The translations under genes and the position numbers were made by a program. Under the pieces are notes generated by a model, which saw nothing but the letters and a program-made list of their open reading frames with translations, made no database searches and had not been told where the DNA came from. A stretch of DNA of 40,850 nt. Source: Deltaproteobacteria bacterium (GTDB lineage Bacteria; Myxococcota_A; UBA796). The DNA lies in contig NYTD01000068.1 in the NCBI GenBank assembly GCA_002683315.1, positions 1-40,850 of the forward strand, read 5' to 3'. Position 1 is the stretch's first letter. Each line of letters begins with the position of its first letter. Below, in pieces: positions 7,356 through 40,850 of this stretch.

Positions 7356-7357
7356 GT

Positions 7358-9139: not shown

Positions 9140-9236
9140 TATCAGAGATTGATATTCATTCTTTTACAACGTAATGGAGTCTCAGTATTTTGAGGAATCC
9201 AAATACGGGATGTATCAAGAAGGGGTACAACAGAGT

Positions 9237-9785: not shown

Positions 9786-9928
9786 TCTCAGACTTTATAT
9801 CTAACAACTTTTTCAATATTGATCGATAGGCCTTACTTGTTTGGAAGTCAGAGAACATGTAATGGAACAAGCATCACGATTATTTTCCGATAATGCAAAG
9901 ATCACCATAGGATAGGATTCTGGCTTCT

Positions 9929-14192: not shown

Positions 14193-14678
14193 ATGCGTTG
14201 GTTTCTGGTCGATACAATAGATCAGCTTATTTTGGGTGATTTTGCAGTAGGCACAAAGACCTATGCAGATACAGAACCCTTTTTTCAAGATCACTTTCCA
14301 AATTTTCCAGTGGTTCCCGGTGTTCTTATCATGGAGTCTTTGGCTCAGATATCGGGAAAGCTTATTGGGTATACGGTTCGTACAGATCGTGGAGACTGGC
14401 CTTTTCCCATCCTGAGTATGATGAATCGAGTCAAATTTCGAAAATTCATCCCTCCCAACACCTGCATCACGTTGGAAACAAAGATCAAAGTTCTCAAAGA
14501 TGAAAGCGCGCTTGTTGATGTCCGAGCTAAGGTAGCAGGAAAAGTTCATGCGCAAGCAGAGCAGCTTTTTGTGTTCAATTCGGTGCCATTGGAAGAAGGT
14601 GAGAGTGAAAGATTGGAAGAACTAGAAAGAACCGAACTTCTTCGACTTTGGAAAGATTGTCCGGAGCATCACTCATGA
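14193..14678 (+). CDS. fabZ: FabZ-type 3-hydroxyacyl-ACP dehydratase
   Basis: FFQDHFPNFPVVPGVLIMESLAQ and VKFRKFIPP. GGAG RBS before MRWFLVD (alternative start 14166). Confidence 0.9.
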   Translation: MRWFLVDTIDQLILGDFAVGTKTYADTEPFFQDHFPNFPVVPGVLIMESLAQISGKLIGYTVRTDRGDWPFPILSMMNRVKFRKFIPPNTCITLETKIKVLKDESALVDVRAKVAGKVHAQAEQLFVFNSVPLEEGESERLEELERTELLRLWKDCPEHHS

Positions 14679-16740: not shown

Positions 16741-16760
16741 TTGACGCTATTGGTTGGTGT

Positions 16761-19752: not shown

Positions 19753-20477
19753 TGATTCTAAAAAATGTACGTCTTGTGTCAGTAAAAGGTCTTTTCTCTG
19801 GTGATGATAATTTTGTACAGTATCGTCTAAAAAAGCTCATACCAGACAGAAAGAGTATCAAGTTGATGAATCGTACTGTTCAACTTGGAATTGTTGCTGC
19901 TCGGATGACTCTTGAAGAAAGTGATGTGTGGAAAAAATTTCCACCATCTCGTCGTGGAATGTTTGTTTCAGCAAGTCCTGCGATTCGAGGTCAAGATGAC
20001 CTTCATAATGCACTTATGGCTTCCATGGTAGAAGGGAAGTTTTCCTATAAATCTTTTGCAGAGCAAGGAAGAACCCATATTCATCCTTTGTGGTTGGTAC
20101 GAGGATTAAGCAATAATATTTTAGGATTTGGAACTGCATTTTGGGATTTTCAGGGCGAAAACATGAATTATTGCCAAGGTCGAAGTGGAGGAAAACATGC
20201 ACTGATTCAGGCTGCACATGCCATTTGTGAAGGACGATTGGATGTCGCACTTGTGGGCGGAGCAGATTCTTTGATCGAAGCAGAAGAATTTTTGCATAAG
20301 CCATGTGCAGAAGGGGCCGCATTTGCTCTGTTGGTTTCCTCCAAAACCGACTTAAAACTTGATCTTGATTCGATTGAAAAACATGAACAGAAATTATCTG
20401 AATTGGGTGCGGGGAGTTGGTCAATTGCTTTTTGGAAAGCATATGAATCCAACAAATGCGTGTTAATGACAGAGTGA
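19752..20477 (+). CDS. Second truncated non-catalytic ketosynthase partner (CLF-like)
   Basis: HPLWLVRGLSNN, ALVGGADS and AEGAAFALL. The Cys position is occupied by Arg (GENMNYCQGRSGG). Only 241 aa. Confidence 0.75.
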   Translation: MILKNVRLVSVKGLFSGDDNFVQYRLKKLIPDRKSIKLMNRTVQLGIVAARMTLEESDVWKKFPPSRRGMFVSASPAIRGQDDLHNALMASMVEGKFSYKSFAEQGRTHIHPLWLVRGLSNNILGFGTAFWDFQGENMNYCQGRSGGKHALIQAAHAICEGRLDVALVGGADSLIEAEEFLHKPCAEGAAFALLVSSKTDLKLDLDSIEKHEQKLSELGAGSWSIAFWKAYESNKCVLMTE

Positions 20478-20531
20478 TTTTTGATATTGTGTTAAACTCC
20501 AACAACATCAATGATATTGAAGGAGTTTGAT

Positions 20532-20954
20532 ATGACCATTGCACTGGCGACACAAAGTGATGACGTTCAAAAAGATATTTGGGAAAAAGTATCCATAGCA
20601 TTTCAAGAGGCACTTGGACTTGATGAAGACGAAGTAGAGTTTGACATGACGATCATTGAAGATTTGGATGCTGAGTCCCTTGATCTTCTTGATATAACAT
20701 TTCAACTTGAGCGCTCGTTCGATATATCTATACCTCGTGGCGGAATTCAAAAAACAGCACAAGAAGGTGCAGATAATGATGGTTTACAATCGGATGGAAC
20801 CTTGACAGACAACGCCCTGGTTCGTCTTGCCGAAGCGATGCCAGAAATTCCAAAAGAAAAATTTGTACAAGGCTTAAAGCCCAATGATATCCCCAATTTG
20901 TTTGTGGTTGGAACCTTTTATAATCTTGTGGTTCGACTTCTAAACGAAAAATAG
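20532..20954 (+). CDS. Acyl carrier protein with a large C-terminal insertion
   Basis: DLDAESLDLLDITFQLERSFDISIP core with the Ser intact. About 50 extra residues precede LFVVGTFYNLV. AAGGAG RBS before the ATG at 20532. Confidence 0.88.
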   Translation: MTIALATQSDDVQKDIWEKVSIAFQEALGLDEDEVEFDMTIIEDLDAESLDLLDITFQLERSFDISIPRGGIQKTAQEGADNDGLQSDGTLTDNALVRLAEAMPEIPKEKFVQGLKPNDIPNLFVVGTFYNLVVRLLNEK

Positions 20955-21901
20955 TGAAGCGATTCTTATTTTTGGTTCATCCTCTTTCGAACCCACACCG
21001 TACACTTATGTCGCTTCGATGTCGGTTTTGGAAAAGTTTGATTACGGAAACATATACACAAGCAGAGATTGCCACACTATGTCGTTTTCGATGGGAAGAT
21101 ACAATAGAGGGTGTGGTCATGTCGATCCCACTTCTTCCCAATGAGATGATTGAAAACCAAGAGCGCGCTCTTTCTTTATTGCATAGAGCATATCGGATTG
21201 GTCTGGCTAAATACGGGAATATTGATGCCGTGGGGTTGGGATCGTTATGCTCTGTTGTAGCGAGTCGAGGAGTTGAGTTACAAAAGATAATTCCTGTTCC
21301 AGTAACAACGGGTAATGCTGCTACGGCTTGGTGCATGTACGCCCATATACAAAAGAGAAACATATCCGATCCGATCGCTGTATTGGGTTCATTATCTCCT
21401 GTTGGACAGGTGCTTTGTCGTCTATTACATCAAGCGGGATATGAGTTACGTGTCGATAAAAAACGTGCGGCCAAAAAGTATGGTTGGAATCATGGTGAAC
21501 CAGAAGATATTGTACGCGAAGCTTCTTTGGTTATCGGTTGTGGGCCAACTGGACCTGTGTTGGATGGACAAGCATTGCTCCCCAATGCTGAGGTGATTGA
21601 TGTGGCACTTCCTGGAAGTATTCAAGGATTCGTACACAATATGGTCTATCAAGGAGAAGGGATGTCAATGCCTGTCTCATGGAAAAGAGGTTTTTGGGGA
21701 CCCTTGTATCATCTTGTGTCTGGTTATGGGTGGAACACTGTTTTGGCTTGCTTGATTGAGCCCTTGATCGTTGTTTCCTTGGGTCGAAAAGAAGGTTTGG
21801 CATTAGGAAGTAAGATCGATCCGCAGGCCGTTCTTGATTTTGGTGGAGAAGCGAAGCGTCTCGGATTTGAGCCCAAACTTATTGTTCATCGGATGGGATG
21901 A
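20954..21901 (+). CDS. Acyl-ACP reductase-like oxidoreductase (AAR / COG5322 type)
   Basis: N-terminal FLFLVHPL, GLGSLCSVV and VTTGNAATA; Rossmann-like IAVLG; VIDVALP; VLACLIE; C-terminal AKRLGFEP. This matches the motif order of cyanobacterial AAR. Confidence 0.75.
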   Translation: MKRFLFLVHPLSNPHRTLMSLRCRFWKSLITETYTQAEIATLCRFRWEDTIEGVVMSIPLLPNEMIENQERALSLLHRAYRIGLAKYGNIDAVGLGSLCSVVASRGVELQKIIPVPVTTGNAATAWCMYAHIQKRNISDPIAVLGSLSPVGQVLCRLLHQAGYELRVDKKRAAKKYGWNHGEPEDIVREASLVIGCGPTGPVLDGQALLPNAEVIDVALPGSIQGFVHNMVYQGEGMSMPVSWKRGFWGPLYHLVSGYGWNTVLACLIEPLIVVSLGRKEGLALGSKIDPQAVLDFGGEAKRLGFEPKLIVHRMG

Positions 21902-22381
21902 TTACCCAACAAGATAAGTGGCCACACCGCTTGCGATTTGAATATTTTGCTCGTTGTGTAATGCTACGCGAAATACACCTATTTTATTGCCCATTCGTTC
22001 GATTTGTGCACTTGCGGTGAAACATGTTCCTTTTCCCGGGCGAAGAAAGTCGACGTGTAGGTTGACCGTTCCGAGCTTGGAAAATCGTTCGTTGAATTCT
22101 GCAATGGTGCATTCTTGTGTATCGATAAACAAAGAGCGTGCAGCAATAAGGCCACCTACGGTGTCAAGTGCAGAAGAGATCACACCACCATGAAGAATAT
22201 TTTGCATTTGGTTTCCGATAAATTCATCTCTTCTATCAAAAATAAGTTCGGCACGATTGTTTGTTATCTTTCCAATGCGGTAGTGAAAAAGAGTGTTAAA
22301 AGGCAGGACTTCAAGAAATATCTGAGAGATTTTCTCCAATATCTGTGGATTTTTGAGAATTGTTTCGTGTGGTGTGTTCAT
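21902..22381 (-). CDS. PaaI/YigI-family hotdog acyl thioesterase
   Basis: FIGN...ILHGGVISSALDTVGG, LGTVNLHVDFLRPG and IASGVATYLVG. Confidence 0.9.
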   Translation of the reverse strand: MNTPHETILKNPQILEKISQIFLEVLPFNTLFHYRIGKITNNRAELIFDRRDEFIGNQMQNILHGGVISSALDTVGGLIAARSLFIDTQECTIAEFNERFSKLGTVNLHVDFLRPGKGTCFTASAQIERMGNKIGVFRVALHNEQNIQIASGVATYLVG

Positions 22382-26410: not shown

Positions 26411-29400
26411 TTACCCGATTTTACGAAAATGTATACACTCTTTACGTTTGATGTGTGCAAGAGCAAAGCAAAGATGATCTCGATAGGAAAACTTTACTGC
26501 AATTTCAAGATAGCTATATTGTCCAAGATGATTGTATAATGTGACATTTGCCCGAAAAGGGGAGCACATGGTGATTTCAATATCAGTTGTGGCGATGCGA
26601 AGACCAATGCCGAGGAGTTTTGAAACAGCTTCTTTGGCACACCATATGGCTGTAGTCCTATGATGCGTTATCGCTTGTTTTTGTTCATGTAGAGTGAAGC
26701 AGTGTCGAACAAAGCTTATGGGGCGTGGTACAATCTCATCTACATCAAGTCCAATAGGTCCATGGAACGAGAGAGCAGCAAATCCTTTATGATTTGTGTG
26801 TGAAATGCTGATCGCATATTTAGGATGTTTTTCGAGGTATGGTGCACCGAGGGAATTATTAAAAACAGAAGAAGAGGAAAGTCCTTGATTTTGTAAGAGT
26901 TTTGCAACAGCCTTTCTGCCAAGAATTCGATCCTGTCGTCTTTTTTGGGCATGTTGCGTGATTTCAAAAGAACCCAATTCATCAGGAATAGATGCTTCTT
27001 GTGGAACCAATAGGCTTTCAGTCCACCCTTTCTGTGGAATAGGGAGTTTATCTCCATCGGGCAGAGGACCCAAGATAGAAAATTTTAATCCACGTAAACG
27101 AAGAACAACAATATGAGCTGTGTCGATATCGACATGATATCGATCACCCTCTTTATAGACGACAATTTGTAGTGGTTCACCATCTTTTGGTGCTTCAATA
27201 AATTCCAACTCTGCAAATCCAGCGGGTAAACCGACTTGATTACTCTGGCTCATAAGGTGGAGTCCAGCAGCTTGAAAGGCTGCCTCAAGAGCCAAAGGTG
27301 CGGTAGATAAGGGGTTTGGATGGAGCTTGGTGTGATATACTGCTCCTTCACAGCTTAAGAAATCAGTGGACAATTCATAAACCTGATCAAGAACTTGAAA
27401 TGTTGGTCCATGGAAAAATCGCGCGTAGATCTCTTCTTTGGTGAGGATATAATCTGTCCCATATCGTTGTGACAAGTCGCTTGTCTCTGGTTTGGGCATC
27501 AGTTGAACGATCGCCCGAAAGTGCTCTGTTTCCTTGTTTTTTCCATTTGCAAGGATTCGATGACTGTAGAGAGTACAAGAAACCACTCCTTTTCGAACAG
27601 CTTTGGTTCGAACTTCCAAAGAAAGTGTATCAAAGAGTTTTATGGGAGTATCATATTCTACAGAAGATGCACCGCAAAAGCGTGTTCCTGGCCAGATATG
27701 CTTGGCGGCATTTACCATGATTTCAAGACCAATCACACCAGGAAGTACGGGTCGTGTATTGATACAATGATCTTTTAGCCAAGGGGTGTTTTCAAGATTT
27801 AACTCCACAAAACAACGTTGATGATCTCCCCAGAGTTGCACACGATCAATAAACGGCTCGCATGATGGTCGATCAAAATCCCCAAGTTGATCGGTTATGA
27901 TAATCTCATTGCTCCAATTTTCTCGGATGAGGGAGACCATGAGCTCGGCACATGGTTGCGCCTGCAGAAGAAGAATTCCACGCTGTTGCAAAGCAAAGCT
28001 CATTCCTCCCCTTGTAGCCATACCAACTCCATCCCAAGCGCTCCAATCGATATGCAATGCGTTGGGATGTCCAGAGCATAGTCTTGCAAGACCATCATTG
28101 GCTGACGCATAGTCTGCTTGACCGGTATTTCCAAATCGACCCGCAATAGAGCCCATGGATATGAATTTGGTACTTTTGGGAAGAGAATGAAGCAAGTACA
28201 TACCTCCAAGTGCTTTGGGAGTGTATACAGAACGGAACTCTTGGATTGTTTTTTCCGATATGCGTTTGGAGATTTCTATTCCCGCGCCATGAATACAGAT
28301 ATCTATGGTTCCCCACATCTTTGTGATTTTTTGAATTGTTTCAGATACATCACGCTTGTTTCCAACATCTAAAGCGTAAAATACCACATCTGCACCGAGT
28401 TCTTGTATGTCTTCGATTGTTCTTCTGGCCTCTTCGGCACGCATAAATGGAGCCATGTGCTCTCGAATGATTGCGGGCGTAACATGTTCATTTTTTTCTT
28501 TTAGGAGAGTCTTTATGTTCTCCTTCTCTTTGTCAATATCTAATGGAGATTGTGCTGGAGGAGTGCGTGACAACAGTGCAATTCGAACATTTGAGTAGCG
28601 AGCAAAGGCACGGGCTATTTCAGAACACACCCCACGAGTTCCACCAGTAATCACAATTGTTTTGGTCTCTGTAGATTTTTCTGTGGGCAGAGGTGGTATA
28701 GGCTGAAGCTGAATCTCGGTTCGAGAGCGAAGTCCATCACTCCAAAAAACTTCTTGCGTAGGCTCAGATGTTTGGAGCTCCTCTAGTATGTGTTCGCATT
28801 TTTGTTGAATGGTATATTGCGGAGATAGATCAACAACACGAATTTGTGTGTTTTCCCACTCTCGGCTTAGTGTTTTACACAGTCCGGCTCTGGAACCTGA
28901 TTCCAAACGAGTTTGGGGTGCAACGTTATGCGGTGTCGTCCCGATTGAGGTTATACACATCCAAAATTTGGGTTGTATTCCATGCTGCGCTGTTAAGAAT
29001 CCAGCTTCTGGATTGGAGCTAAGATCGATGACTAAATCTGGATTGGATGATTCTATCATGCCGTATGAAGTCAGTGTCTTTGTGAGCATGTCGACAAGCT
29101 GACCGTTACCTATGATGGCAAAGGAGGAGAATTTATTGGAATATCCCTTTTGAATGGGGTGTGGAATTCGCACGACACTATATATTTGTGTTGTTGTTGG
29201 TAGGTCATGCTGTATATAAGATCGGACAGGTTCTTTTGATGCCGATTCTGTAATGAGGTCTTTGGATATCGGCTGTGTAAGTTCTTCTGTGCTGGAAAGA
29301 TGCGAAGATAATGAACGTCTTTTATTTTTTCTGGGAACAAGGAGAGATTCGGTGACGGAAGAGATTGTATCTGTTGATTCTGTTATGACTGAATCAGTGA

Positions 29401-32400
29401 TTTCTAGGTCAAGGTTTTGCAGGGGAATGTCATTTTCTTGTACCACAGAAGAATGATGATCTGGTGTTGTTTGTTGGACTTCAGGCTTTGCTTTTTCCAG
29501 TGATGCAGTATGGGGATTTTCTTCAAACCAAGAACAAAGAGCACGAATGGTTGGAACTTCTGTAAGAACCAAATCGGTCTGTGTTGGAATTTGAAAGATA
29601 TCGCGTAATGTGGAAAAGATTTCCGCTTGTTTTACAGTATCAATTCCTAGGTCTGCCTCTAGTTCATAGTCCAACTCAAGATCTTGTCGATCATATCCAG
29701 TGGTTTGTGCGATACAATCCAAGACTTGATCTTGGATTGATTTTGTAGGAGTCTTCATGGAGATACTGTCTTTTATTTCTACTTGCGGCAAAGAAGAGAT
29801 CTGTGTTTGTTGATTTGGAATCAGTCGTAAAACGTGATCTTGTACTTTAAGAGTTGCGGGGTGATCGTACAGTGAAGAAAACCATTGTTTTTGACGGTCG
29901 GTATCAAAGCATCGATTCGACGGTGCATCTTGCGGAACGATGGTTTTCCATAGTAAGAAAGCAATTTGAGAGCCAAAACCCGCAGCAAGTCGTAGTGCAT
30001 ATGTTCCGGTGAATGTTCCTCCTTTTGAAAGAGAGATGTTTCCAAGTTCAGGATCAACTTCCTTGTAATTGGGGATGGGGGGAACTGTTCGGTGCTCCAA
30101 TGCTTTTACAGCCAAAACATCTTCAATACCTGCTCCCATAGAATGCCCAGTAGCTCCTTTGCTGTTGCAAATAAGGATTTGATCGATGTTTGATCCAAAT
30201 GTTTGTCGCAATCCTTTTATTTCTGCGGAGGCAGATCCTCCTCGTGCTGGAGTATAGGTTTCATGTGAAACGAAGAGCGTCTTTGAAGCAATATCTGAAG
30301 GAGTGGTATTATTTTTTGTACAGGTCTTTTCTACAAATTCCTGTAGTGCGTCTGCAATGTCATCTTCATTTAGGCGCGTACCGTGGAATGCACTATTGGA
30401 AAAGTGTGATCCAAGAAGTTCAGCTATGGGATATTGTCCTCTTTGTTCTACATCGATGCGTCGTTCTAGAACCATTCCAACAGCACCCATACCCAAAATC
30501 ATTCCATTTCTTCGTTTGTCAAACGGAAGGGCTGCTTCTTCTACATCTGATTTGGTTGTCGCTGCACCGACGCTCAAAAATCCTGCACCAATCCACTCAA
30601 ACATTTCTTCATTGGTCACATCATCAGCTGCAATGACAATGACACGTTCAGCTCTTTGGGTTTGGAGCCAATCTTGTGCGATGGCGATGGCTTGGGTTGT
30701 TGAAGCACATGCCGCATTTACGTAGGTGTTGGGACCTTTTGCACCAATATATTGTGCAAATTGTGTATGTCCCATGCTTAATATCTGAAACAAAAACTTG
30801 CGGTTGAATTCTTTTGGTGGCGTTTTGATACTGGCTATGAGGTTGCTATATCCAGGAAAGGCACTGGCAAAAATAATGCCCGTTCCTTTTTGTAGATTTT
30901 GGGGGAGTATCCAACCGTCTTGAATGGACGTCCCTTTTCTATATCGAGGGACGAGTGGTATGCGCGCATCTGTTAATGCTTCTAGTCCCGCAGCAAATGC
31001 TAGCTTTGTAGTGATATCAAATGTTTGAAGAAGTTCTTCTGGGATATCGTAATCACGGAGTGAGAAGTATGATTTTTGTCCAGCCAGTTGGATGACTTTT
31101 TCTGTGTCTGAAACATGTTCAAACCCTCCTTGGCCCGTCTGCGCATTTTTGCTGACGCGAACGATATTTTTGTTTAGGAATCGTTTTTTTGCTTCTTCCG
31201 TAATGGAGGAAATACGATTTTCTCCTCGAAGCAGTGCATCGATATTATCTGTCGAGAAGACAGAAGTTCCACCTGGCAATCCAACGGATGCTCCGGAGCA
31301 AACAACTTGGATCCTCTGTGGAAGTTGAGTGGATTGTGTGATGGGTTGGGGCTGGAGGGGGTTTTTTACGTCCTTTTGTGTGATGGCATGTAATAAGGAT
31401 TCAAATCGTTGATCTAAAATTTGGTTGAGCTCTTGTTTGGTTACACTGTGCTTTTCGATCGGCTTTATGAGTGGATTTTCAGCCAAAGGAGAGTCCTTCT
31501 GTATAAAAGACTTTCCTTTTATGGCACGGAAACCAGCAATACATTGCATGAAGGATCGTTGTTCACCTGTTTTGGGGTGATTCGTATTTAAGATGTAATG
31601 ATGTCGTTTTTTTAGAATGTTGCTGACAAGGCCGGTTAATACACGTTGAGGACCACATTCTACAAATACTCGCGCCCCTGCATCATACATCGTCTCAATT
31701 TGTGTGATCCATTCAACAGGATGTGTGACTTGTGCAGTAAGTGTATCGATGATGGAGTTTGGGTCAGTAGAAAGCCAAGATCCTGTCACGTTGGTTGTCA
31801 TGGGTATTTGAGGGATAGAAATGGTCCGCTTTTCAAGAACTTTACGCAATGGCTCTGTCGCAGGTGCTACGATCTTAGAGTGGAATGCATGACTCACAGG
31901 AAGAACCTTACATCGAAATCCTTTTTCCTTACACATTTTAAGTATAGATTGAACTCCAGCACTTGAACCGGCAATTACTGTTTGGTTGGGACTATTGTTG
32001 TTGGCGGCGATGACATAGTCTTCTGATTTTTCCAGCAGCGGAGTCAAAGCTTCCGCCTGCGCAAAGATTCCAGCCATCATTCCAGGATCATCAAGGTGAA
32101 TATTTGCCATTTCGCGACCACGAACAGTGACAGAGATAAGTGCATCTTCAAAGCTCATCACTCCCGCTGCAACTGCTGCTGCATATTCTCCAAGAGAATG
32201 CCCCGCAACCATATCTGGCTCTATCCCATGTTCTTTGAGCAGGCGAAATAACGCGATATCCATGCACAATGTGGCAGGTTGTGCAATTTTTGTATCCGAG
32301 AGCATGGAAAACTGCTCTTGTGAAGAGAGAGAAGGATCGGAATAGATATAATCAATAAATGGTTTGTCAAGTTGCCCTTCTAGAAAAGTGTTGGCTTGGT

Positions 32401-35020
32401 CAAAAGTCTTTTTGACAATAGGAAATAGGTCACATAGCTCTTTTCCCATGTCCAGATATTGGCTTCCTTGACCGGTAAATAAAAAAGCTACTTTTCCTGC
32501 TGGTTTTCTTCGGTCGATAACATATATGCCTCTTCCTCGAAGCAGTGCAGGATTCTTGTTGGATGTATGTGTTTTTTGTATGCGAACAGATTGCTCTGTA
32601 TATTCAGCAAGATTTTGGGCATATGCGCAGGTAATCCATGTGTCGGATGAAGCCACGCTCCAATCACGAAGATTGATTTTTCGAACAAGATCTGAAAAAG
32701 AAGCGCCTCCCACCGACCAAATATTTGGAAATTTTGATTCTGTAGAAGAAAGTGTCTTGGTGTCATGTTGAGTAGGCGTATTCTCTTTTGGTACAGAGCT
32801 CATACAAAGATGAAAATTGGTTCCTCCAAACCCAAAAGCACTGACTCCAGCTCTTCGTATAGATGAAGACCAATCTTCTGTTTGGGTTTGAATTTTGATA
32901 GGCCCTAATTCGATATCGGTTCTTGGTGTTGTGTAATTGGCTGTTGGAGGGAATTTTTTATGATAGATGGCCAATGCTGTTTTGATGACACTTGCCGCAG
33001 CTGCCGCACTTTTTAGGTGTCCAATATTGGATTTGACCGAACCTACTCGAAGAGGAGTTGTGCGATTCGATGGCTGGATATCTCGAAGAGTTTCCAATTC
33101 TACTTGATCTCCAACGATTGTGCTGGTTCCATGGCATTCTACAAGCTCAATACTTCCAGCTTCAATATTGGAAGCTGCATAGGCTCGCTCCAAGGCATAT
33201 CGTTGTCCAATTGGATTGGGCGCTGTTATTCCTTTTCCTTTTCCATCACTGGAAGCACCCATACCATCGATGACGGCATAGATTTTATCGCCATCACGCT
33301 GAGCATCGCGTAATCTCTTCAAGATGAGAATGCCACAGCCTTCGCCCATCACAAATCCATTGGCCCGCTGATCAAATGGAGAGGAATGGGTCGGAGAGAG
33401 TGCTCCGATTTTACTAAATTTAACATAGGTTGGAATTCCCATGCTATGATCAGATCCACCTGTTACGACCATATCGAATTCTCTGTCTCGTAATCCTTTT
33501 ATTGAGGCTTGAATGGCGGCCATAGATGATGCACATGCTGCATCAAGAGTATAATTTGGACCGTTAAAATTGAACGCGTTGGCTACTCTTCCAGCAATAA
33601 CGTTGGAGAGTTCTCCTGGCATAGAATCTGAATTCAGCTTGGGTAGTGTCTCTTTGATCTGCGTACGAACTCTTGCGATCATTGCATCGCGATCTTGGCT
33701 GGAGAGAGATTGAATGACAGGGTCGCGTAAAAATGCTTGTTCAAACTCAGGAAGTCTCGTTCTCAATGTATAGTCTTGAGAGACCTCTCCTCCCATAGAA
33801 TTGCCCAAGATTACAGCCGTTCGTGAACGGTCAAAATCTCGGTCATGATACCGTGCATCAGCAAGAGCATCTTCTGTACTGGCAAGTGTAAGTTGTTGGA
33901 CGAGATCTACTTGCTGGAGTACGAATGGGGGGATTCGAAACGGTTTTGGGTCGAATGTAAAAGAACGAATGAAGCCACCAACTTTGGAATATGTTTTGTC
34001 TTCTTTTTGAGGGTCTGGATCCCAAAAAAGACTTGAATCCCATCGGTTTGTTGGTACTTCGATAATAGAAGATTTTTGATTGATGATATTGTTCCAGAAA
34101 TCTTGTGGATTATTTGCATCGGGAAAACGACACCCCATACCGATGATCGCGATTGGTTCTTGGTGTGTAGAAGAAGGGGAAGCGGTAGTTGAAATAATCG
34201 CGATTGGTTCTTTTTTAAATTCTGGAGGCTTTGTGATTTTTTTAGGAGAAGGATTCTTTGGCTCTACCAATGTACTTGGATCACCTTTGTAGGCTCTTAG
34301 AAGATGTGCGATGGAAGGATAATGTTTGGCTATATCAGGAGCATGAAGAATGGATGAGCCAAAAGGCGCAGGGCAGGTGGCAGGATCTGATTTTTGAAAC
34401 CATTCTGTACAGGTCTTCCACCAATTTTTTTCGAGAGCGATCGTCTCTATGCCTGCTGAAAGTGCGGGAGCAAAGATAGATACATTTTTGTGTCTTTGGC
34501 AAAGAGAAGGATCTTGTTTTTCTATCAGTTTTTTCCATGCTGTAGGAAGGAGCATTTCGGGCAGAGCCATGAGATATTCATGGAGTATAATCCCTTCGAT
34601 ATTATTGTTCTCTACTTTGTCCATGTCGGTAGGTAGCAATGCACAATCCAACATGATTCTTTGATCAGGTGTCCGTTTGCTCAACCGATCCCATATGTCT
34701 GTGTTACCCGCTTGTCCTCCGACATTTGGACCGCGAAGAATAATTCCGGCAAATCCTTTTGGTGTTTTTTTGTATCGAGAGGTTTCAAGCCATGTGTCGC
34801 GATTTCGAATGGGTAGCTTGTGATTTTCCCCAGCGAGAATTACGGGGCCTTTGCCCGGTACAGCTCTACGTACTCTTGTGCGTACCCAAGCACCAGCTGG
34901 AATGGCGACCCGATCTCCAAGAGATATATCAATAACGGGAATCCCTCCTGCCTTTACAACATTTGAGGCTAGGTTACTACGTGCAGAGGGTAAGAAACAA
35001 AGGATTTGTGGTGTGGACAT
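26411..35020 (-). CDS. Type I PKS/FAS megasynthase: degenerate FMN-barrel(ER-like)-KS-AT-KS-ACP(Thr)-KR-DH-PPTase
   Basis: KS1 DAAC496ASS, ECHGTST, NIGHLK. AT GHS942LG, VSHAFHS. KS2 NAAC1438AST, VSHETYT, TGHSMG. Carrier ADLGIDT1795VKQ. KR ITGGTRG, GQADYASAN. DH LKDHCINTRPVLPG, HGPTFQ. PPTase GAP...ISISHT, IGLDVD, WCAKEA. Confidence 0.92.
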   Translation of the reverse strand: MSTPQILCFLPSARSNLASNVVKAGGIPVIDISLGDRVAIPAGAWVRTRVRRAVPGKGPVILAGENHKLPIRNRDTWLETSRYKKTPKGFAGIILRGPNVGGQAGNTDIWDRLSKRTPDQRIMLDCALLPTDMDKVENNNIEGIILHEYLMALPEMLLPTAWKKLIEKQDPSLCQRHKNVSIFAPALSAGIETIALEKNWWKTCTEWFQKSDPATCPAPFGSSILHAPDIAKHYPSIAHLLRAYKGDPSTLVEPKNPSPKKITKPPEFKKEPIAIISTTASPSSTHQEPIAIIGMGCRFPDANNPQDFWNNIINQKSSIIEVPTNRWDSSLFWDPDPQKEDKTYSKVGGFIRSFTFDPKPFRIPPFVLQQVDLVQQLTLASTEDALADARYHDRDFDRSRTAVILGNSMGGEVSQDYTLRTRLPEFEQAFLRDPVIQSLSSQDRDAMIARVRTQIKETLPKLNSDSMPGELSNVIAGRVANAFNFNGPNYTLDAACASSMAAIQASIKGLRDREFDMVVTGGSDHSMGIPTYVKFSKIGALSPTHSSPFDQRANGFVMGEGCGILILKRLRDAQRDGDKIYAVIDGMGASSDGKGKGITAPNPIGQRYALERAYAASNIEAGSIELVECHGTSTIVGDQVELETLRDIQPSNRTTPLRVGSVKSNIGHLKSAAAAASVIKTALAIYHKKFPPTANYTTPRTDIELGPIKIQTQTEDWSSSIRRAGVSAFGFGGTNFHLCMSSVPKENTPTQHDTKTLSSTESKFPNIWSVGGASFSDLVRKINLRDWSVASSDTWITCAYAQNLAEYTEQSVRIQKTHTSNKNPALLRGRGIYVIDRRKPAGKVAFLFTGQGSQYLDMGKELCDLFPIVKKTFDQANTFLEGQLDKPFIDYIYSDPSLSSQEQFSMLSDTKIAQPATLCMDIALFRLLKEHGIEPDMVAGHSLGEYAAAVAAGVMSFEDALISVTVRGREMANIHLDDPGMMAGIFAQAEALTPLLEKSEDYVIAANNNSPNQTVIAGSSAGVQSILKMCKEKGFRCKVLPVSHAFHSKIVAPATEPLRKVLEKRTISIPQIPMTTNVTGSWLSTDPNSIIDTLTAQVTHPVEWITQIETMYDAGARVFVECGPQRVLTGLVSNILKKRHHYILNTNHPKTGEQRSFMQCIAGFRAIKGKSFIQKDSPLAENPLIKPIEKHSVTKQELNQILDQRFESLLHAITQKDVKNPLQPQPITQSTQLPQRIQVVCSGASVGLPGGTSVFSTDNIDALLRGENRISSITEEAKKRFLNKNIVRVSKNAQTGQGGFEHVSDTEKVIQLAGQKSYFSLRDYDIPEELLQTFDITTKLAFAAGLEALTDARIPLVPRYRKGTSIQDGWILPQNLQKGTGIIFASAFPGYSNLIASIKTPPKEFNRKFLFQILSMGHTQFAQYIGAKGPNTYVNAACASTTQAIAIAQDWLQTQRAERVIVIAADDVTNEEMFEWIGAGFLSVGAATTKSDVEEAALPFDKRRNGMILGMGAVGMVLERRIDVEQRGQYPIAELLGSHFSNSAFHGTRLNEDDIADALQEFVEKTCTKNNTTPSDIASKTLFVSHETYTPARGGSASAEIKGLRQTFGSNIDQILICNSKGATGHSMGAGIEDVLAVKALEHRTVPPIPNYKEVDPELGNISLSKGGTFTGTYALRLAAGFGSQIAFLLWKTIVPQDAPSNRCFDTDRQKQWFSSLYDHPATLKVQDHVLRLIPNQQTQISSLPQVEIKDSISMKTPTKSIQDQVLDCIAQTTGYDRQDLELDYELEADLGIDTVKQAEIFSTLRDIFQIPTQTDLVLTEVPTIRALCSWFEENPHTASLEKAKPEVQQTTPDHHSSVVQENDIPLQNLDLEITDSVITESTDTISSVTESLLVPRKNKRRSLSSHLSSTEELTQPISKDLITESASKEPVRSYIQHDLPTTTQIYSVVRIPHPIQKGYSNKFSSFAIIGNGQLVDMLTKTLTSYGMIESSNPDLVIDLSSNPEAGFLTAQHGIQPKFWMCITSIGTTPHNVAPQTRLESGSRAGLCKTLSREWENTQIRVVDLSPQYTIQQKCEHILEELQTSEPTQEVFWSDGLRSRTEIQLQPIPPLPTEKSTETKTIVITGGTRGVCSEIARAFARYSNVRIALLSRTPPAQSPLDIDKEKENIKTLLKEKNEHVTPAIIREHMAPFMRAEEARRTIEDIQELGADVVFYALDVGNKRDVSETIQKITKMWGTIDICIHGAGIEISKRISEKTIQEFRSVYTPKALGGMYLLHSLPKSTKFISMGSIAGRFGNTGQADYASANDGLARLCSGHPNALHIDWSAWDGVGMATRGGMSFALQQRGILLLQAQPCAELMVSLIRENWSNEIIITDQLGDFDRPSCEPFIDRVQLWGDHQRCFVELNLENTPWLKDHCINTRPVLPGVIGLEIMVNAAKHIWPGTRFCGASSVEYDTPIKLFDTLSLEVRTKAVRKGVVSCTLYSHRILANGKNKETEHFRAIVQLMPKPETSDLSQRYGTDYILTKEEIYARFFHGPTFQVLDQVYELSTDFLSCEGAVYHTKLHPNPLSTAPLALEAAFQAAGLHLMSQSNQVGLPAGFAELEFIEAPKDGEPLQIVVYKEGDRYHVDIDTAHIVVLRLRGLKFSILGPLPDGDKLPIPQKGWTESLLVPQEASIPDELGSFEITQHAQKRRQDRILGRKAVAKLLQNQGLSSSSVFNNSLGAPYLEKHPKYAISISHTNHKGFAALSFHGPIGLDVDEIVPRPISFVRHCFTLHEQKQAITHHRTTAIWCAKEAVSKLLGIGLRIATTDIEITMCSPFRANVTLYNHLGQYSYLEIAVKFSYRDHLCFALAHIKRKECIHFRKIG

Positions 35021-35107
35021 CTCATACCTTTGGTGTGGATGGTTCTGTGCAAATGTGTGCCAAACACTGGATTTTTGAATAGATCAGATCACAGAAGGGA
35101 GATCCAG

Positions 35108-36337
35108 ATGAATTGTGAACATAAGGACAAGCCTCATGTGTATATAAAAGAAAACAAGATTGTCGTTCAAAAGGACGATCAAGTTATTTCTATTAACCTA
35201 TCTGATGCGCAAATGCTTGTTCAAGAAATCATCGAAGCGAACCAAATTTTACATAAGATGGAAGAAAAAAAGAAAAGTCGTATAGAAGAATTTCGTGTAC
35301 GACTAAAAAAATGTTCCTCGGGTATCATAACGTCTGATCGAATGTCACATATTCTCCGATGGAATGACCGATTCTTACACAAGGCTTCGGTCAATATTTT
35401 GGCTTCTTGTTTCTCTCTAGATGATGATGGGTGGGCTGTGGTGATTCCAGAATTGACACGATATGGTCGTGTGGGTTTATTTTTTGCAATATCTACCCAC
35501 GAAGATCAAGATATCGTCTCTGAATTGTGGAATTGGGGAGCTTTTGATGAAATTCTCTGCTCCACATTGTGGGATCTTCCTTCTACGCAGATCCCACAAA
35601 CCTTTCAGACGAGGCTTGTTCCTTTTGTGTCTCAAGAATGCTTTATTCCTGCAGGAGATTTTATGATGGGCTCTGAAGGAATGGAAGCCTTACCTTGCGA
35701 ATATCCAAAGAGAAAGATTACGCAATCGCGTGATATATACATGACACGATTTCCCATGACCCAATTGCAATACTGGTCTTTGACCGATCAAGAGCCATCT
35801 CATTTTCAAGGAGCGTTGAGGCCCGTGGATTCGATCTCTTGGTTGGATGCCGTACAAGCTTGTAATCTTTATTCGTTGGCAATGGGGTACAAGCCAGCAT
35901 ATCGCATAGAAAAAGAAGGAGCTGTTCTTTGGGATCAAAGTGCAAATGGGTATAGGCTTCCTACAGAAGCGGAGTGGGAATCTGCAGCACGTGCGGATCA
36001 AGATTGTTATTTCTCTGGAAGTGATGACCCATGCAAGGTGGCCTGGTTTTCAGATAATGCAACGGAAACAAAGCGTGTAGGAGCTAAAGAACCCAACTCT
36101 GCACACCTGTATGATATGACTGGAAATGTGTGGGAGTGGGTCTTTGATGCATATGATGAAGAAGCATACAGAAAGACTCCTACGATAGATCCGGTTGTAG
36201 AAGAAGGAACATACCGAGTATGTCGTGGTGGAGCATTTACCAGCTCCGCAGAGAGTTCTCGAATCAGTATTCGTGGAGCATATGAACCAGATGAGCGTAA
36301 TTGGGCGGTAGGATTTCGGATGGTTCGTTTTGCCTAA
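35108..36337 (+). CDS. FGE-sulfatase (SUMF1-like) domain protein without the FGE catalytic cysteines
   Basis: IPAGDFMMGS, MTQLQY, RPVDSISWLDA, YRLPTEAEWESAAR, LYDMTGNVWEW, RVCRGG and VGFR. GGGAG RBS before the ATG at 35108. Confidence 0.88.
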   Translation: MNCEHKDKPHVYIKENKIVVQKDDQVISINLSDAQMLVQEIIEANQILHKMEEKKKSRIEEFRVRLKKCSSGIITSDRMSHILRWNDRFLHKASVNILASCFSLDDDGWAVVIPELTRYGRVGLFFAISTHEDQDIVSELWNWGAFDEILCSTLWDLPSTQIPQTFQTRLVPFVSQECFIPAGDFMMGSEGMEALPCEYPKRKITQSRDIYMTRFPMTQLQYWSLTDQEPSHFQGALRPVDSISWLDAVQACNLYSLAMGYKPAYRIEKEGAVLWDQSANGYRLPTEAEWESAARADQDCYFSGSDDPCKVAWFSDNATETKRVGAKEPNSAHLYDMTGNVWEWVFDAYDEEAYRKTPTIDPVVEEGTYRVCRGGAFTSSAESSRISIRGAYEPDERNWAVGFRMVRFA

Positions 36338-36338: not shown

Positions 36339-37763
36339 TCACCATGGTGAAGGAGTACCTGTAATACCTTTCCGGACTTTTTTTCCTAGTATACGTATAT
36401 CGGGGTGTAGTACTTGATCATCGCTCCAAAATTGCACCTGATCTCTAATTTGAGCATGGATCTTTGCAATGCGAGGCGGAAGAGGAAGATGATCTGTTTG
36501 CATCCGTAGATCCAATGCTTGTGCAGCGAGTAAAAGTTCGATGGCGACAATGTCTGCGAGGCATTCTAGTATTTCTAAGGTATGTCTTGCGGATATGGGA
36601 GCCATGGAAACATGATCTTCATGATGCTGAACGGTTGGAATTGAATCGACACTCGCTGGCATTGTAAGACCTTTGCATTCCGAAGCAAGTGCAGCCGCAG
36701 TGTATTGTGCAAGCATAAATCCAGAATTTAGTCCTGTACCTTGTACCAAAAAACTGGGTAGATCTTTGGATAGTTTTTCATGTGTGAGGCGAAACGTACG
36801 TCGTTCAGAGAGAGTTGCAAGTTGGGTTAGAGCGATCTTAAGATGATCAAGAGCGAGTGCGATTTGTGTACCGTGAAAATGTCCCGCTTCGATCCACTCT
36901 CCATCAATGAGTAAAGGATTATCAGAACAGCCATTGAGTTCTTGTTCCATAATTTTTTTTGTGTGGTTGATGGCGAGTAATGTTGATCCCATGACAGATG
37001 GTCCACATCGTATGGAGAAGGCATCTGGTTTTCGCTGTGGACCGACACGTTCAGAGTCTTGAAGTAAAGCCCGCAGTTGAGCTCCTATTTCTATACACTC
37101 TGGATGTCCTCTTAGGGTTAATGCTTTTTTATGGATGCACTGATTTTGCGCATAAATAGCCTCCATGGTCATTGATGCAGCAATAATGGCGGCGTCTAAA
37201 ACTTTTTGTGCACGCACAACAGCAATCGATCCTAGAGCAGTACTTAGTGATACGCCATTGATAAGAGAAAGACACTCTTTGGCCGTGGGCTCAAGAGGAG
37301 TAAAAGTATCAGGGTGAGCTATATACCCACATACCACTGCTGCAATATGTGCCATGGGAGCCAGATCTCCTGCTGCTCCAACACTACCTTGTGATGGAAC
37401 ATCGGGAATATCATTGTTGTTGATTAATTCCAATATTTTTTGTGCAGCAATCGGCCTAGAACCAGTGAATCCTGAAGCCAAGACGTTGATCCTTGCAGCC
37501 ATTGCGGCTCGAACATACTCTTTGGGCAAGAGTTCACCAACACCTGCACAGTGCCCGAGGATGAATTCCTTTTTTAGGTTTTCACTTTGGGTCTGTTCTT
37601 CTCCAAGTAGCCATGCTCTTTTGCTTTCGAGAATGGTAGACGGAGTGTGTAGCGCATTTTCTTCCATCTTTTGAAGAGAGGATTTTGCGATAGAGCATGG
37701 TTCTCCATGTGCGATGCGATGTAAAATATCACATGTCAGACTGGTTCCATCAATAAGATTCAT
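36339..37763 (-). CDS. Aromatic amino acid ammonia-lyase paralog lacking MIO serine (probable pseudoenzyme)
   Basis: HCAGVG, GSVGAAGDLAP (AAG rather than ASG), LINGV, PDAFSIRC, SDNPL, GLNSGFM and HEDHVSM. The YGVNTGFG loop is absent. Confidence 0.85.
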   Translation of the reverse strand: MNLIDGTSLTCDILHRIAHGEPCSIAKSSLQKMEENALHTPSTILESKRAWLLGEEQTQSENLKKEFILGHCAGVGELLPKEYVRAAMAARINVLASGFTGSRPIAAQKILELINNNDIPDVPSQGSVGAAGDLAPMAHIAAVVCGYIAHPDTFTPLEPTAKECLSLINGVSLSTALGSIAVVRAQKVLDAAIIAASMTMEAIYAQNQCIHKKALTLRGHPECIEIGAQLRALLQDSERVGPQRKPDAFSIRCGPSVMGSTLLAINHTKKIMEQELNGCSDNPLLIDGEWIEAGHFHGTQIALALDHLKIALTQLATLSERRTFRLTHEKLSKDLPSFLVQGTGLNSGFMLAQYTAAALASECKGLTMPASVDSIPTVQHHEDHVSMAPISARHTLEILECLADIVAIELLLAAQALDLRMQTDHLPLPPRIAKIHAQIRDQVQFWSDDQVLHPDIRILGKKVRKGITGTPSPW

Positions 37764-39298
37764 GAAGACTCCTCTGTGGAGATGGCAAAAGCTCCTTTTT
37801 GTACTTGATTGGCAATATGTTCGATTTGATGTGCGATTAAAGTATTGGACGATTGCTCAAACAGGATATCGTGTACCATTTGGTATCCTTTTTTTGTACC
37901 CTTTCCCAGTTTGTGCTTGGGGTTTTTATCGATTCGGTACGATAATGCATGGCCTGCGGTCAATAGCTCGATCGCAATCACACGACGAGCATTGTCAAAC
38001 ACTTTCCGACAACGTCGTGCGGCCACGGTACTCATGGCAATATGATCTTCTTGATCTTCACACGTGGGAATAGAATCTACACTCGCCGGCCAAGCCAGAG
38101 ATTTATTTTCGGAAACCAGTGCAGCGGCTGTGGTTTGTGGAACCATCATTCCCAATGCAGGCTTGTCTTTTCCAACCAAGCCAGGAGGCAGTCTTTGTGA
38201 AAGATTCCCTGTAGTGAGGCGGTATAATCGACGTTCTGATATTGAGGCAAGTTCGCAAATGGCTATTTTTAGACTATCGATAGCCATGCCGATTGGTTCC
38301 CCATGAAACATACCCGCACTAAATGCTTTGTTTTCATCGGGTTCTTCGAGTAAGATCAGTGGATTGTCTGTGGCAGCATTAAGCTCAATCGATATCTGCG
38401 AAGAGACAAAGTCATACATATCTCGTACAGAGCCCAAAACTTGAGGGGTGCATCGTAGACTGTATGCGTCTTGTACTTTTTCAGGGACAGAGTCGATAAG
38501 TGTAGAGCCTTGAATGTGATTGCGAATTTGTCTCGCACATTCTATCGCTCCACGATAGGGTCGAAGCTTATGCACAGAGGCATGAAAGGCACGAGAAACA
38601 CCCAAAAGAGCTTCGATACTCATGGAAGCAGCAAGTTCGGCACTTTTTATAAGAGAACGTACGTCTTCGCACAGTAACGCCGCGAGGGCTGTCGAGAGTT
38701 GAGCTCCATTTGTGATGGCAAGTCCATCTTTTGCTTCAAGTAGAATCGGTTCAAGGCCTATTTTTTTCAGTGCTTCTGGTGCAGAGATCTTTTCTCCATG
38801 TACAATCGCTTCTCCAAGTGGATCTCCGATCAGAACCAATCCAAGATGTGCCAGAGGAGCAAGATCACCAGAAGATCCACAGCTCCCTTGCATGGGGATC
38901 ACTGGAAGAAGATTATGATTGAGAAATGCGATCAGATACTCCACCAATAGAGGTCGACAACCGCTGACTCCTTTTGACAGAGCATTGGCACGTAGTAGCA
39001 TCATTGCACGCGTGACATCTGGTGGAGCAATGGGTCCGACACCAGCCGCATGAGAACGAATAAGATTTCTTGAAAGGAGTGAAGACTGTTCTGGAGGAAT
39101 GCGCAATCGTGCCAACGAACCAAATCCTGTGTTTACCCCATAGATTGCACGATCACCCAAAGAAGCATCACGTACCCACATATAGCTGTTTTGCATATTT
39201 TCACGAGCCTGTGAGCTTAAGGCAACTTCTTTATTTTGTCGTGCAACAGCGACAACATCTTCGATGGTCAATGTGTTGCCGGTTAGGTACAATGGCAT
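37760..39298 (-). CDS. hutH: Histidine ammonia-lyase
   Basis: AIYGVNTGFG, LIRSHAAGVG (SH specificity pair of HAL), GSCGSSGDLAPL, QDAYSLRC, TDNPL and QEDH. Confidence 0.8.
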   Translation of the reverse strand: MPLYLTGNTLTIEDVVAVARQNKEVALSSQARENMQNSYMWVRDASLGDRAIYGVNTGFGSLARLRIPPEQSSLLSRNLIRSHAAGVGPIAPPDVTRAMMLLRANALSKGVSGCRPLLVEYLIAFLNHNLLPVIPMQGSCGSSGDLAPLAHLGLVLIGDPLGEAIVHGEKISAPEALKKIGLEPILLEAKDGLAITNGAQLSTALAALLCEDVRSLIKSAELAASMSIEALLGVSRAFHASVHKLRPYRGAIECARQIRNHIQGSTLIDSVPEKVQDAYSLRCTPQVLGSVRDMYDFVSSQISIELNAATDNPLILLEEPDENKAFSAGMFHGEPIGMAIDSLKIAICELASISERRLYRLTTGNLSQRLPPGLVGKDKPALGMMVPQTTAAALVSENKSLAWPASVDSIPTCEDQEDHIAMSTVAARRCRKVFDNARRVIAIELLTAGHALSYRIDKNPKHKLGKGTKKGYQMVHDILFEQSSNTLIAHQIEHIANQVQKGAFAISTEESS

Positions 39299-39380
39299 AT
39301 GTGGTTCCTCTAGAGGAAATTATCATACAACTTGTCTCTTTTCAAGGCATCTCTTTTATGTATCTTTGGGTTCTCTGATC

Positions 39381-40850
39381 ATGATTCTTCCATTCGTCTT
39401 TTATTCTTGTACACCCGATCTCCCGGAAAAATATACCAAAGAAGAGGTTGTATCAACGAAAATAAATATTTTGCTCGTTACCATTGATACGCTTCGTGCT
39501 GATCGTGTCGGTGCGTATGGGGATACAAAAGCACAAACAAAAACAATTGATCTGCTTGCGCAAAAAGGAGTTTTATTTCGAGAAGCACATAGTCTATCTC
39601 CACTCACTCTCCCATCCCATTCTTCTATTTTAACAGGATTATACCCTAAAGAACATGGAGTACGTGATAATGCTGGTTTTGTTCTTCCCAATAAGATCCA
39701 CACAATCGCAGAAGCATTGAAAACAGGTGGATATGAGACATCAGCGTTCGTTTCAGCTTTTGTATTGGAACATTCTTGGGGATTGTCACAAGGATTCGAT
39801 CGATACCATGATCCATTTCATCCAAAAGATCTCTCTAAAGTTTCAGCACTTGGAGAAGCTCAGATTCCTTCATCAGATACCATCAATGCAGCACAAGCGT
39901 GGTGGAAAAAAACAAAAGGTCCCAAATTCTCATGGGTTCATTTGTACGATCCACATACGCCTTGGGAGACCAAAACGGGAGATCCATATCGAGGAGATAT
40001 TGCACAAGCAGATCAGAATCTTGCACGGTTGATCGCGCAAACAGATTCTTCCGATTTGATCATCATTACCTCTGATCATGGAGAAAGTTTATGGGAGCAC
40101 GGTGAGCGAGAGCACGGAGTTCTTCTTCATAGATCAGTGACACGAGTCCCTTTGATTATTCGTCCTCCGGGGACAATAAACGGGGTTACAGAACCACCTC
40201 CAAGAAATTCTATTTTGGAGGTCCAACGACCAGAAGGGGTTGATCCTCGTTTGATTCTAGAACCTGTCAAAGATGCTCCAAAAGCTGGTTATGTTGTGGA
40301 TGATGTGGTTCGTCTTATCGATATCGCACCGACAATAGCAGACTATGCGGATGTACCCTTTTCTGCTTCTGGATTATCGTTACGTCCTTTTATAGAAGGT
40401 AAGTCACAGCCTTCTCGTATCGCGTATGCCGAGACTCTATTTCCCTACTACCATTTGGGTTGGTCATTTATGACAATGGTGCAAAATGCTCAAAGGCGTG
40501 TTGAAAAAGGTATTGATACTCGAGCAATGCTATGGAAAAGTGCACAAAAAACATTACCGACATCTGTGTTACTTAATGAGATGGACATGAGGTTCGGTTC
40601 CGATATACCTATACCAGGGGCTGTAACAAGTGCTCAGCAAGAAGCGTTACAAACGTTGGGGTATATGTCAGGAACGGAGACGATTAAGCAGGACATGGAT
40701 CCTCGTGACCACATTCATGTCTTATCCGATCTTTTCCAAGCTCAAGAACTTCCTCACGAACAGGCTATTCCTGCTCTAATTGACTTGATAAACAAGTATC
40801 CCAACATGATTCATGCATACACAGCTTTGACATTACATTATGTACAAGCA
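39381..40850 (+). CDS. Partial (3'-truncated) sulfatase-like hydrolase of the alkaline phosphatase superfamily, putative lipoprotein
   Basis: Read directly from the DNA because it is absent from the ORF track (no stop in window). MILPFVFYSC, ILLVTIDTLRADRVGAYG, PLTLPSHSSILTGLYP, WVHLYDPH, TSDHGE, RVPLII, DIAPTI and LQTLGY. Confidence 0.88.
   Translation, partial: MILPFVFYSCTPDLPEKYTKEEVVSTKINILLVTIDTLRADRVGAYGDTKAQTKTIDLLAQKGVLFREAHSLSPLTLPSHSSILTGLYPKEHGVRDNAGFVLPNKIHTIAEALKTGGYETSAFVSAFVLEHSWGLSQGFDRYHDPFHPKDLSKVSALGEAQIPSSDTINAAQAWWKKTKGPKFSWVHLYDPHTPWETKTGDPYRGDIAQADQNLARLIAQTDSSDLIIITSDHGESLWEHGEREHGVLLHRSVTRVPLIIRPPGTINGVTEPPPRNSILEVQRPEGVDPRLILEPVKDAPKAGYVVDDVVRLIDIAPTIADYADVPFSASGLSLRPFIEGKSQPSRIAYAETLFPYYHLGWSFMTMVQNAQRRVEKGIDTRAMLWKSAQKTLPTSVLLNEMDMRFGSDIPIPGAVTSAQQEALQTLGYMSGTETIKQDMDPRDHIHVLSDLFQAQELPHEQAIPALIDLINKYPNMIHAYTALTLHYVQA

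Follow-up and report, generated by a model that had tools for sequence, protein, structure and literature searches.

The carrier domains of fatty-acid, polyketide and non-ribosomal peptide synthesis are all taken to hold phosphopantetheine (Ppant) on a conserved serine, and annotation rules, domain models and labelling tools assume that residue. Here we describe a bacterial megasynthase whose only carrier domain bears a threonine at the corresponding position, and we report that this replacement is the rule in the family to which the enzyme belongs, the 'Type R' secondary lipid synthases (Shulse & Allen 2011, PLoS One 6:e20146, PMC3098273). The gene lies in a stretch of 40,850 nucleotides (hereafter "the window"; contig NYTD01000068.1, assembly GCA_002683315.1) from a deltaproteobacterium of GTDB lineage Bacteria; Myxococcota_A; UBA796, and its product is denoted P0001. 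From sequence comparison it appears quite likely that the hydroxyl of this residue, Thr1795, is phosphopantetheinylated by a dedicated phosphopantetheinyl transferase (PPTase) fused to the same polypeptide. We put a probability of roughly 0.65 on the broader proposal that the whole Type R family uses O-(4'-phosphopantetheinyl)-threonine, which would be the first natural threonine-linked Ppant, installed by a co-evolved PPTase that accepts or prefers threonine.

On the minus strand the coding sequence reads GGA ATT GAT ACT GTA AAA, in which ACT (29638-29636) specifies Thr1795 within ELEADLGIDTVKQAEI. The surrounding domain (residues 1764-1831) matches the PP-binding model of Pfam with 26.2 bits against a cut-off of 20.8 when the protein is searched, and with 33.2 bits (29528-29731) in a scan of the whole genome. 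A search of Protein Data Bank (PDB) sequences with the carrier domain returned a single match, PigH (5y08_A; E 1.1e-14), and Thr1795 aligns with the serine of the DS motif in both PigH carrier domains. An AlphaFold model of the domain, built with 44 family sequences (pLDDT 85.4), shows long helices at positions 12-24, 45-59 and 75-84 and a short turn at 69-71; the threonine is residue 45 of the modelled piece and starts helix II, the place at which a serine attachment site would be looked for. Foldseek matched this model to acyl carrier proteins (ACPs), among them Escherichia coli AcpP (4etw_B; TM 0.87 by target length, root-mean-square deviation 1.6 A). As modelled, the carrier has a genuine four-helix ACP fold with threonine at the cofactor site. 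The 44-sequence alignment of the carrier domain contains no invariant or near-invariant serine, and P0001 holds no second carrier, there being one PP-binding match and one G-x-D-[ST] motif in the whole protein. A preliminary description of the window, made from its letters alone, had placed a threonine at the Ppant serine position and had seen no other GxDS-type carrier in the protein; DNA, PigH alignment and model agree on the former, and motif search and Pfam, finding only the Thr1795 domain, bear out the latter.

The open reading frame (ORF) and its domains are as follows.

26411..35020, minus strand: megasynthase ORF P0001, 2869 aa, defined from the ORF list, translation, Pfam domains and same-order homologues
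34166..35020, minus strand: N-terminal domain, residues 1-285, possibly a nitronate-monooxygenase (NMO)/FabK-like flavin reductase (a weak lead)
32933..34159, minus strand: ketosynthase (KS) 1, residues 288-696 (PF00109/PF02801), with C496, H630 and H668 invariant
31607..32485, minus strand: acyltransferase (AT), residues 846-1138 (PF00698, 151.9 bits), with GHSLGE (G940-E945) invariant
29801..31168, minus strand: second ketosynthase (KS2), residues 1285-1740, a family hallmark, with C1438, H1586 and H1626 invariant
29528..29731, minus strand: carrier (ACP), residues 1764-1831, motif LEADLGIDTVKQAE (PF00550, ACP-fold model and PigH alignment)
29636..29638, minus strand: Thr1795 codon ACT, at the canonical Ppant-serine position and first residue of helix II; invariant T45 in the carrier alignment
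28031..28660, minus strand: ketoreductase (KR), residues 2121-2330 (PF08659, 88.6 bits), with S2291, Y2304 and N2308 invariant
27071..27826, minus strand: dehydratase (DH), residues 2399-2650 (PF21089 and PF14765), with H2418, P2427 and G2428 invariant
26513..26962, minus strand: fused Sfp-type PPTase, Pfam residues 2687-2836, modelled as 2655-2869 (PF01648, 35.3 bits; cut-off 25)

The domain order of P0001 by Pfam is thus NMO-like?-KS-AT-KS-ACP-KR-DH-PPTase, with the first assignment in doubt. Its reading frame is open, and in family alignments the catalytic residues of KS1, AT, KS2, KR, DH and PPTase all stand in invariant columns, as expected from the earlier impression that the rest of the gene, PPTase included, was intact. 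With the active site of every catalytic domain preserved, the enzyme needs a carrier. The second KS, entered as 'CLF' in the 2011 catalogue, is probably an active ketosynthase, to judge from its retention of Cys1438, His1586 and His1626. For residues 1-285 neither Pfam nor NCBIfam gave a match; a protein-language-model comparison gave scores of 0.84-0.89, most of the listed matches carrying the NMO family PF03060, and these scores fall short of the 0.9 above which a likeness would count as more than a lead. This N-terminal domain is restricted to a subclade, loci L006, L007, L013 and L029 aligning from residue 1, and it might stand in for the acyl-CoA dehydrogenase/ETF genes found ahead of the synthase elsewhere in the family. 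P0001 shares its single carrier, fused PPTase and extra N-terminal domain with two homologues, P0002 and P0003.

Conservation of the threonine was assessed in four samples. Sample (a) comprised 120 proteins listed by a homologue search with residues 1250-1900, candidates being picked by shared words; a phmmer search of these with the carrier domain gave 591 rows, and once two with E>1e-5 were dropped, threonine was found in 589 of 589 carriers. The loci of sample (b), taken from species genomes of many phyla, were chosen independently of the carrier, as the patterns came from two KS1 motifs only ([FY]GFGGTNF and GKGITAPN[PI]). The best 80 of 590 confirmed stretches contain 229 carrier matches, of which 213 have a complete motif, all with threonine; the remaining 16 are truncated, frameshifted or, once, degenerate. 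All four threonine codons are in use at these 213 sites (ACG 101, ACC 88, ACT 14, ACA 10), so that the codon varies under a constant amino acid. A regular expression detected no Ser-type motif inside the sample (b) synthases, its one hit being a GGDS resembling that of non-ribosomal peptide synthetases in a neighbouring ORF of locus L052. For sample (c) the full library was searched with the KS2 domain alone, yielding 512 representatives of 50% identity clusters at E<=1e-30; among the best 150, 19 lack a carrier, mostly being fragments, and the other 131 hold 370 carrier matches, with threonine in 344, serine in 14, glutamine in 1, glycine in 1 and fragmentary or degenerate sites in 10. Sample (d) was drawn from the window's own order, in which 32 of 41 genomes (18 of the 23 of high quality) have a match to the synthase KS2-carrier region; the ten loci returned, including that of the window genome itself, have threonine in 26 of 26 carrier motifs.

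The near-invariant carrier motif of the family is LEADLG[IV]DTVKQAE, and members possess from one to seven tandem carriers, with one in each of P0001, P0002 and P0003. A check of homologues for conservation of GIDTVKQ, suggested in the preliminary description, gave threonine in the closest homologues, P0002 (78%) and P0003 (71%), and in locus L091 from the same genus; what had been presented there as a peculiarity of one gene is the rule in a family of at least 512 clusters (50% identity). These hundreds of clusters are spread over Acidobacteriota, Chloroflexota, Elusimicrobiota, Myxococcota, Actinomycetota and others, with many soil and gut phyla represented. Many members have an extra Thr carrier between AT and KS2, with the variant motif DLGIDTVRQAE[LIV]VA, which is absent from the window protein; examples are P0005, P0007, P0008 and others (at about residues 1300-1390) and loci L092, L093 and L099. 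We found no evidence of free Thr-type ACPs: 24 short matches look like array fragments, being frameshifted or occurring several per contig, and the 11 of these that were inspected all have the Thr motif.

The 14 serine domains of sample (c) occur in six proteins and have a nearly identical motif, EADLGIDS[VI]KQAE (for example IEADLGIDSIKQAEIL). One of these proteins, P0216 (2353 aa), has a mixed Ser-Thr-Ser array, with carriers at 1121, 1227 and 1338. On a FastTree phylogeny of 152 KS2 domains (rows shorter than 300 aa dropped, 21 carrier-less rows uncounted) the Ser state needs five changes. An IQ-TREE phylogeny of 56 KS2 rows, consisting of the six Ser or mixed proteins, the five nearest Thr rows of each, P0001 to P0003 and 18 random others, placed each of the five all-Ser proteins in a different Thr clade with supports of 99-100, and an approximately unbiased (AU) test rejected a tree in which the Ser proteins form one clade (p 0.00036, with a log-likelihood lower by 842). 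On these phylogenies serine has arisen at least five times inside Thr clades, plus once within the mixed array. Such repeated exchange between serine and threonine, with almost nothing else entering the site, is expected of a functional hydroxyl and unexpected of an unloaded docking module. The PPTase domain is available for three of the Ser-type proteins, and the mixed array of P0216 offers a natural test case for the loading of both residues by one PPTase.

Of the 80 sample (b) loci, 29 are cut by contig ends and were left out of the PPTase count; in 48 of the 51 whose KR-DH end is complete, a homologue of the window's PPTase is fused to the synthase or encoded downstream. When unfused, its gene follows the synthase immediately (4-123 nt) or lies no more than about 8 kb away, frequently behind an acetyl-CoA carboxylase gene. 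An alignment of 22 sequences, comprising the window domain and those 21 of 49 PPTase matches that cover most of the profile, shows G103, D105, W139, K142, E143 and K147 to be invariant and E107 nearly so; these residues belong to the Mg/CoA catalytic motifs GxDxE and WxxKEAxxK. The modelled PPTase (pLDDT 85.2) has the Sfp-CoA-PCP structure 4mrt_A as its best structural match (E 1e-10), and its sequence profile identified Sfp (1qr0; E 1.2e-13) in the PDB; the domain thus joins a two-lobed Sfp-like fold to a PF01648 score above cut-off. It is the sole PF01648 match in the window genome, which is 59% complete.

Prediction of a complex of PPTase and carrier with CoA and Mg gave an ipSAE of 0.80 (individual runs 0.79, 0.80 and 0.86), the best of three controls reaching 0.00; contacts agreed by at least 90% among runs and partner pLDDT was at least 79. 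In calibration the mark was attained by 58 of 80 complexes of solved structure and by 2 of 110 mismatched pairings, figures that apply only roughly here, given the custom alignments used and a calibration with no accompanying small molecule. The predicted interface includes carrier residues 44-46 (D-T-V) and PPTase residues E107, W139 and E143. As the Sfp-PCP-CoA complex is already solved (4mrt), the score tells us that the prediction resembles the Sfp-PCP mode; it does not prove binding.

Ordinary serine carriers coexist with the Thr type. The window genome has carriers with DLGFDSL, GGDSL and DAESLD, and among five family genomes inspected, G004 has five copies of the Ser-type LEADLGVDSIKRVEIL in another synthase, while G001 (MESDLGIDSIKRVDIL) and G002 (AcpP-like, NDLGADSLDTVEL) have Ser carriers in other systems. 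The presence of these carriers in the same genomes indicates that the threonine is specific to the Type R system and reflects no organism-wide habit. In none of the five genomes does a stand-alone ACP adjoin the Thr-type synthase. Further PF01648 matches were found in G001, G003 and G005, where they are short and of AcpS size, and in G004, where a second match lies in a 394-aa frame. G002 (the 1.5 Mb genome of locus L047) has the synthase-adjacent PPTase, at C42:26529-26702, as its sole PF01648 match; it also has an AcpP-like Ser carrier, and if that genome is complete, this single enzyme would have to load carriers of either type.

We propose that the fused C-terminal Sfp-type PPTase would move Ppant from CoA onto the hydroxyl of Thr1795, and that the resulting holo-carrier would shuttle malonyl and acyl thioesters among KS, AT, KS2, KR and DH in the manner of a polyunsaturated fatty acid (PUFA) synthase; threonine-linked Ppant would then be the rule for the whole Type R family and not for the window alone. 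As to what is gained, one may speculate that threonine keeps the Type R carriers out of reach of housekeeping AcpS and ACP hydrolase, or that it stabilises the linkage. A threonine-linked Ppant installed by the cis-acting PPTase was among the readings offered in the preliminary description. Its comparative side has stood, in that the site is restricted to threonine or serine, the dedicated PPTase is intact and no other carrier is available in the protein; the modification of the threonine, and the PPTase as its agent, we infer from these comparisons.

Several observations weigh against this proposal. An engineered S36T variant of E. coli ACP is reported (PMC3340395) to be unmodifiable and non-functional, which means that AcpS and AcpP, the best-studied pair, do not tolerate threonine. 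A PPTase was not found in the locus DNA examined for three of the 51 complete loci (L020, L062 and L078), and in G002 the PPTase may be the general enzyme of the cell instead of a dedicated one. With the window genome 59% complete, a further PPTase or carrier may be unassembled. The lone glutamine and lone glycine at the site occur in degenerate-looking extra array copies. The score of the predicted complex may stem from the model's memory of solved structures, and the word-based picking of sample (a) could favour the Thr motif, a bias from which samples (b) and (c) are free. Finally, serine and threonine are both good helix N-caps, and structural constraint could explain part of the pattern.

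The same S36T result lends some weight to a different account, in which the Thr domains would bear no cofactor and act in docking or scaffolding, the chain being carried in trans by a distinct Ser-type ACP that the PPTase primes. A candidate for such a partner exists in the window, where a Ser-type ACP gene (20511-20954) lies 9 kb from the synthase, and AcpP-like genes are present in family genomes. We nevertheless consider this account unlikely. A docking module would tolerate alanine, aspartate, asparagine or glycine at the site, yet threonine (344) and serine (14) make up nearly all of the 370 matches, and serine reappears repeatedly within Thr clades. The Thr-type carriers form arrays of up to seven copies at the carrier position of PfaA, a PUFA-synthase-like arrangement that speaks against the unloaded docking domain entertained in the preliminary description, and the PPTase is fused to a protein in which the Thr type is the sole carrier. 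The trans ACP suggested there, near 20532, is a 147-aa protein with a DAESLD site that belongs to a separate gene set with FabF-like KS genes, and other family members show no conserved free-standing carrier next to the synthase, so that this pairing too is improbable.

Slimmer again is the chance that the threonine hydroxyl is put to some other use, such as direct oxoester acylation by the AT, or attachment of a CoA-derived variant or of phosphate, to give a chemically different carrier. A strictly kept hydroxyl, whether of threonine or serine, suits any O-linked chemistry, and no product is recorded for Type R synthases in the main text of PMC3098273. Against this, the synthase is accompanied in 48 of 51 loci by a PPTase whose CoA/Mg motifs are intact, and the model of the complex, with the reservations given above, would bring the D-T-V turn to the active site of the PPTase. 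The active sites of KS, KR and DH, moreover, are reached by way of a Ppant arm of about 20 A, and KS chemistry uses thioesters. That a Ser codon was misread in sequencing or assembly, or has lately mutated so as to inactivate the carrier, has a negligible probability: ACT is one base away from TCT, which had led the preliminary description to allow for a base-calling error, but threonine is also present in P0002, P0003, the same-genus genome and every other family sample, all four of its codons are used, and the gene is otherwise intact. Sequencing error was therefore rejected in favour of a selected family trait.

In the literature searched, a scope that left most subscription journals and supplements outside, we found no report of threonine-linked Ppant or of threonine in Type R carriers. 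The family and its layout are already known; the replacement of the cofactor serine by threonine in its carriers is, within that literature, the new aspect. If our proposal is true, it would add a new post-translational linkage and define PPTases with a new acceptor specificity, possibly an orthogonal tagging pair beside existing Sfp/Ser tags. It would also correct pipelines that call such domains inactive, and draw attention to an abundant, uncharacterised lipid pathway.

Genes that recur beside the synthase in other members include an acyl-CoA dehydrogenase gene upstream (with ETF alpha in L042), and PPTase and acyl-CoA carboxylase subunit genes downstream; they are located at 7203-9924 and 18513-25004 in L042, 8141-9931 and 19568-23484 in L056, and 19457-21746 in L047. 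With the synthase, these genes have the appearance of a lipid-making unit complete in itself, supplying its own malonyl-CoA and possibly including a trans enoyl reductase. In the window, two aromatic amino-acid lyase paralogues (36339-39298) share the minus strand with the synthase and lie upstream of it. The 512-aa lyase barely reaches the hutH cut-off (540.0 against 539.15), and the 474-aa lyase, which is shorter at its N-terminus, falls below all cut-offs; a role for them as a source of phenylpropanoid starter units was considered and set aside, histidine catabolism being simpler given the hutH match. Between lyases and synthase, on the plus strand, lies a gene for an FGE-sulfatase-domain protein (35006-36337) whose N-terminal 200 aa belong to no known family; the longest ORF of this gene shares 15 nt with the start of the synthase gene. 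Further on, at 39264-40850, the plus strand encodes a sulfatase.

The separate gene set at 14648-22381, which contains the Ser-type ACP, has two pairs made up of a FabF-like KS gene and a short KS-like ORF behind it, and a Ser/Thr protein kinase gene separates the pairs. It further encodes a 315-aa protein weakly resembling the PigE N-terminus and, on the opposite strand, a 4HBT thioesterase. Some domains encoded in the window are better known from eukaryotes, namely thrombospondin type 3 repeats (193-1182) and a Pkinase-type kinase (16629-18566). A Yippee/Mis18-like zinc-binding domain at 11319-11855, likewise familiar from eukaryotes, scores 24.2 bits, slightly below the Pfam cut-off of 26.6. 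The host is probably a Myxococcota-affiliated lineage of low GC: for the MiaB encoded in the window, the nearest relatives bearing a name are MAGs of Myxococcota and 'Deltaproteobacteria', with 69-74% identity.

Among known systems, the closest is Type R itself. As set out in the main text of PMC3098273, it consists of a pfaA homologue of the order KS-MAT-CLF-ACP(3-6)-KR followed by a PPTase gene, and in some cases accompanied by an acetyl-CoA carboxylase gene; it is found in Koribacter, Solibacter, Elusimicrobium and Roseiflexus (Acidobacteria, Elusimicrobia and Chloroflexi), its product being given as unknown. The word 'threonine' has 0 occurrences in that main text, so that the Thr carriers are undescribed there. 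P0001 matches the KS-MAT-'CLF'-ACP-KR order and nests within the family on the KS2 tree, and the loci collected here have the same order, phyla and neighbours as the published ones. P0001 departs from the description in having one carrier instead of three to six, a PPTase fused at its C-terminus instead of encoded directly downstream, and an extra N-terminal domain; its second KS, in retaining Cys-His-His, also departs from the 'CLF' label.

The resemblance to PfaA extends to the KS-AT unit, tandem carriers, the KR-DH end, a dedicated Sfp-type PPTase and a similar carrier motif, exemplified by the Ser-type repeat of G004. P0001 misses the cut-off of the PfaA model TIGR02813 (814.2 against 1010.1 bits), the best stretch covering residues 287-1144 only. 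PfaA carriers use serine, and P0001 has a second, apparently active, KS between AT and carrier. PigH, the tandem ACP of the prodigiosin pathway (PDB 5y08), is the closest solved relative of the carrier and has the same pattern from helix I through the loop to helix II (...TGY...LE.DLG[VI]D...), with DS where the family has DT, and it acts in a different pathway. A self-priming layout with a C-terminal PPTase like that of P0001 is also presumably found in the enediyne polyketide synthases (PKSE; KS-AT-ACP-KR-DH-PPTase) and the alpha subunit of fungal fatty acid synthase (FAS), and fungal FAS PPT domains were among the matches of the fused PPTase in both sequence-profile and structure searches; the carriers of PKSE and fungal FAS use serine, and PKSE is not known to have a second KS. 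The substitution itself is that of the E. coli AcpP S36T variant, confronted there with AcpS; in Type R it is natural and conserved, and accompanied by a PPTase of the Sfp type and not of the AcpS type.

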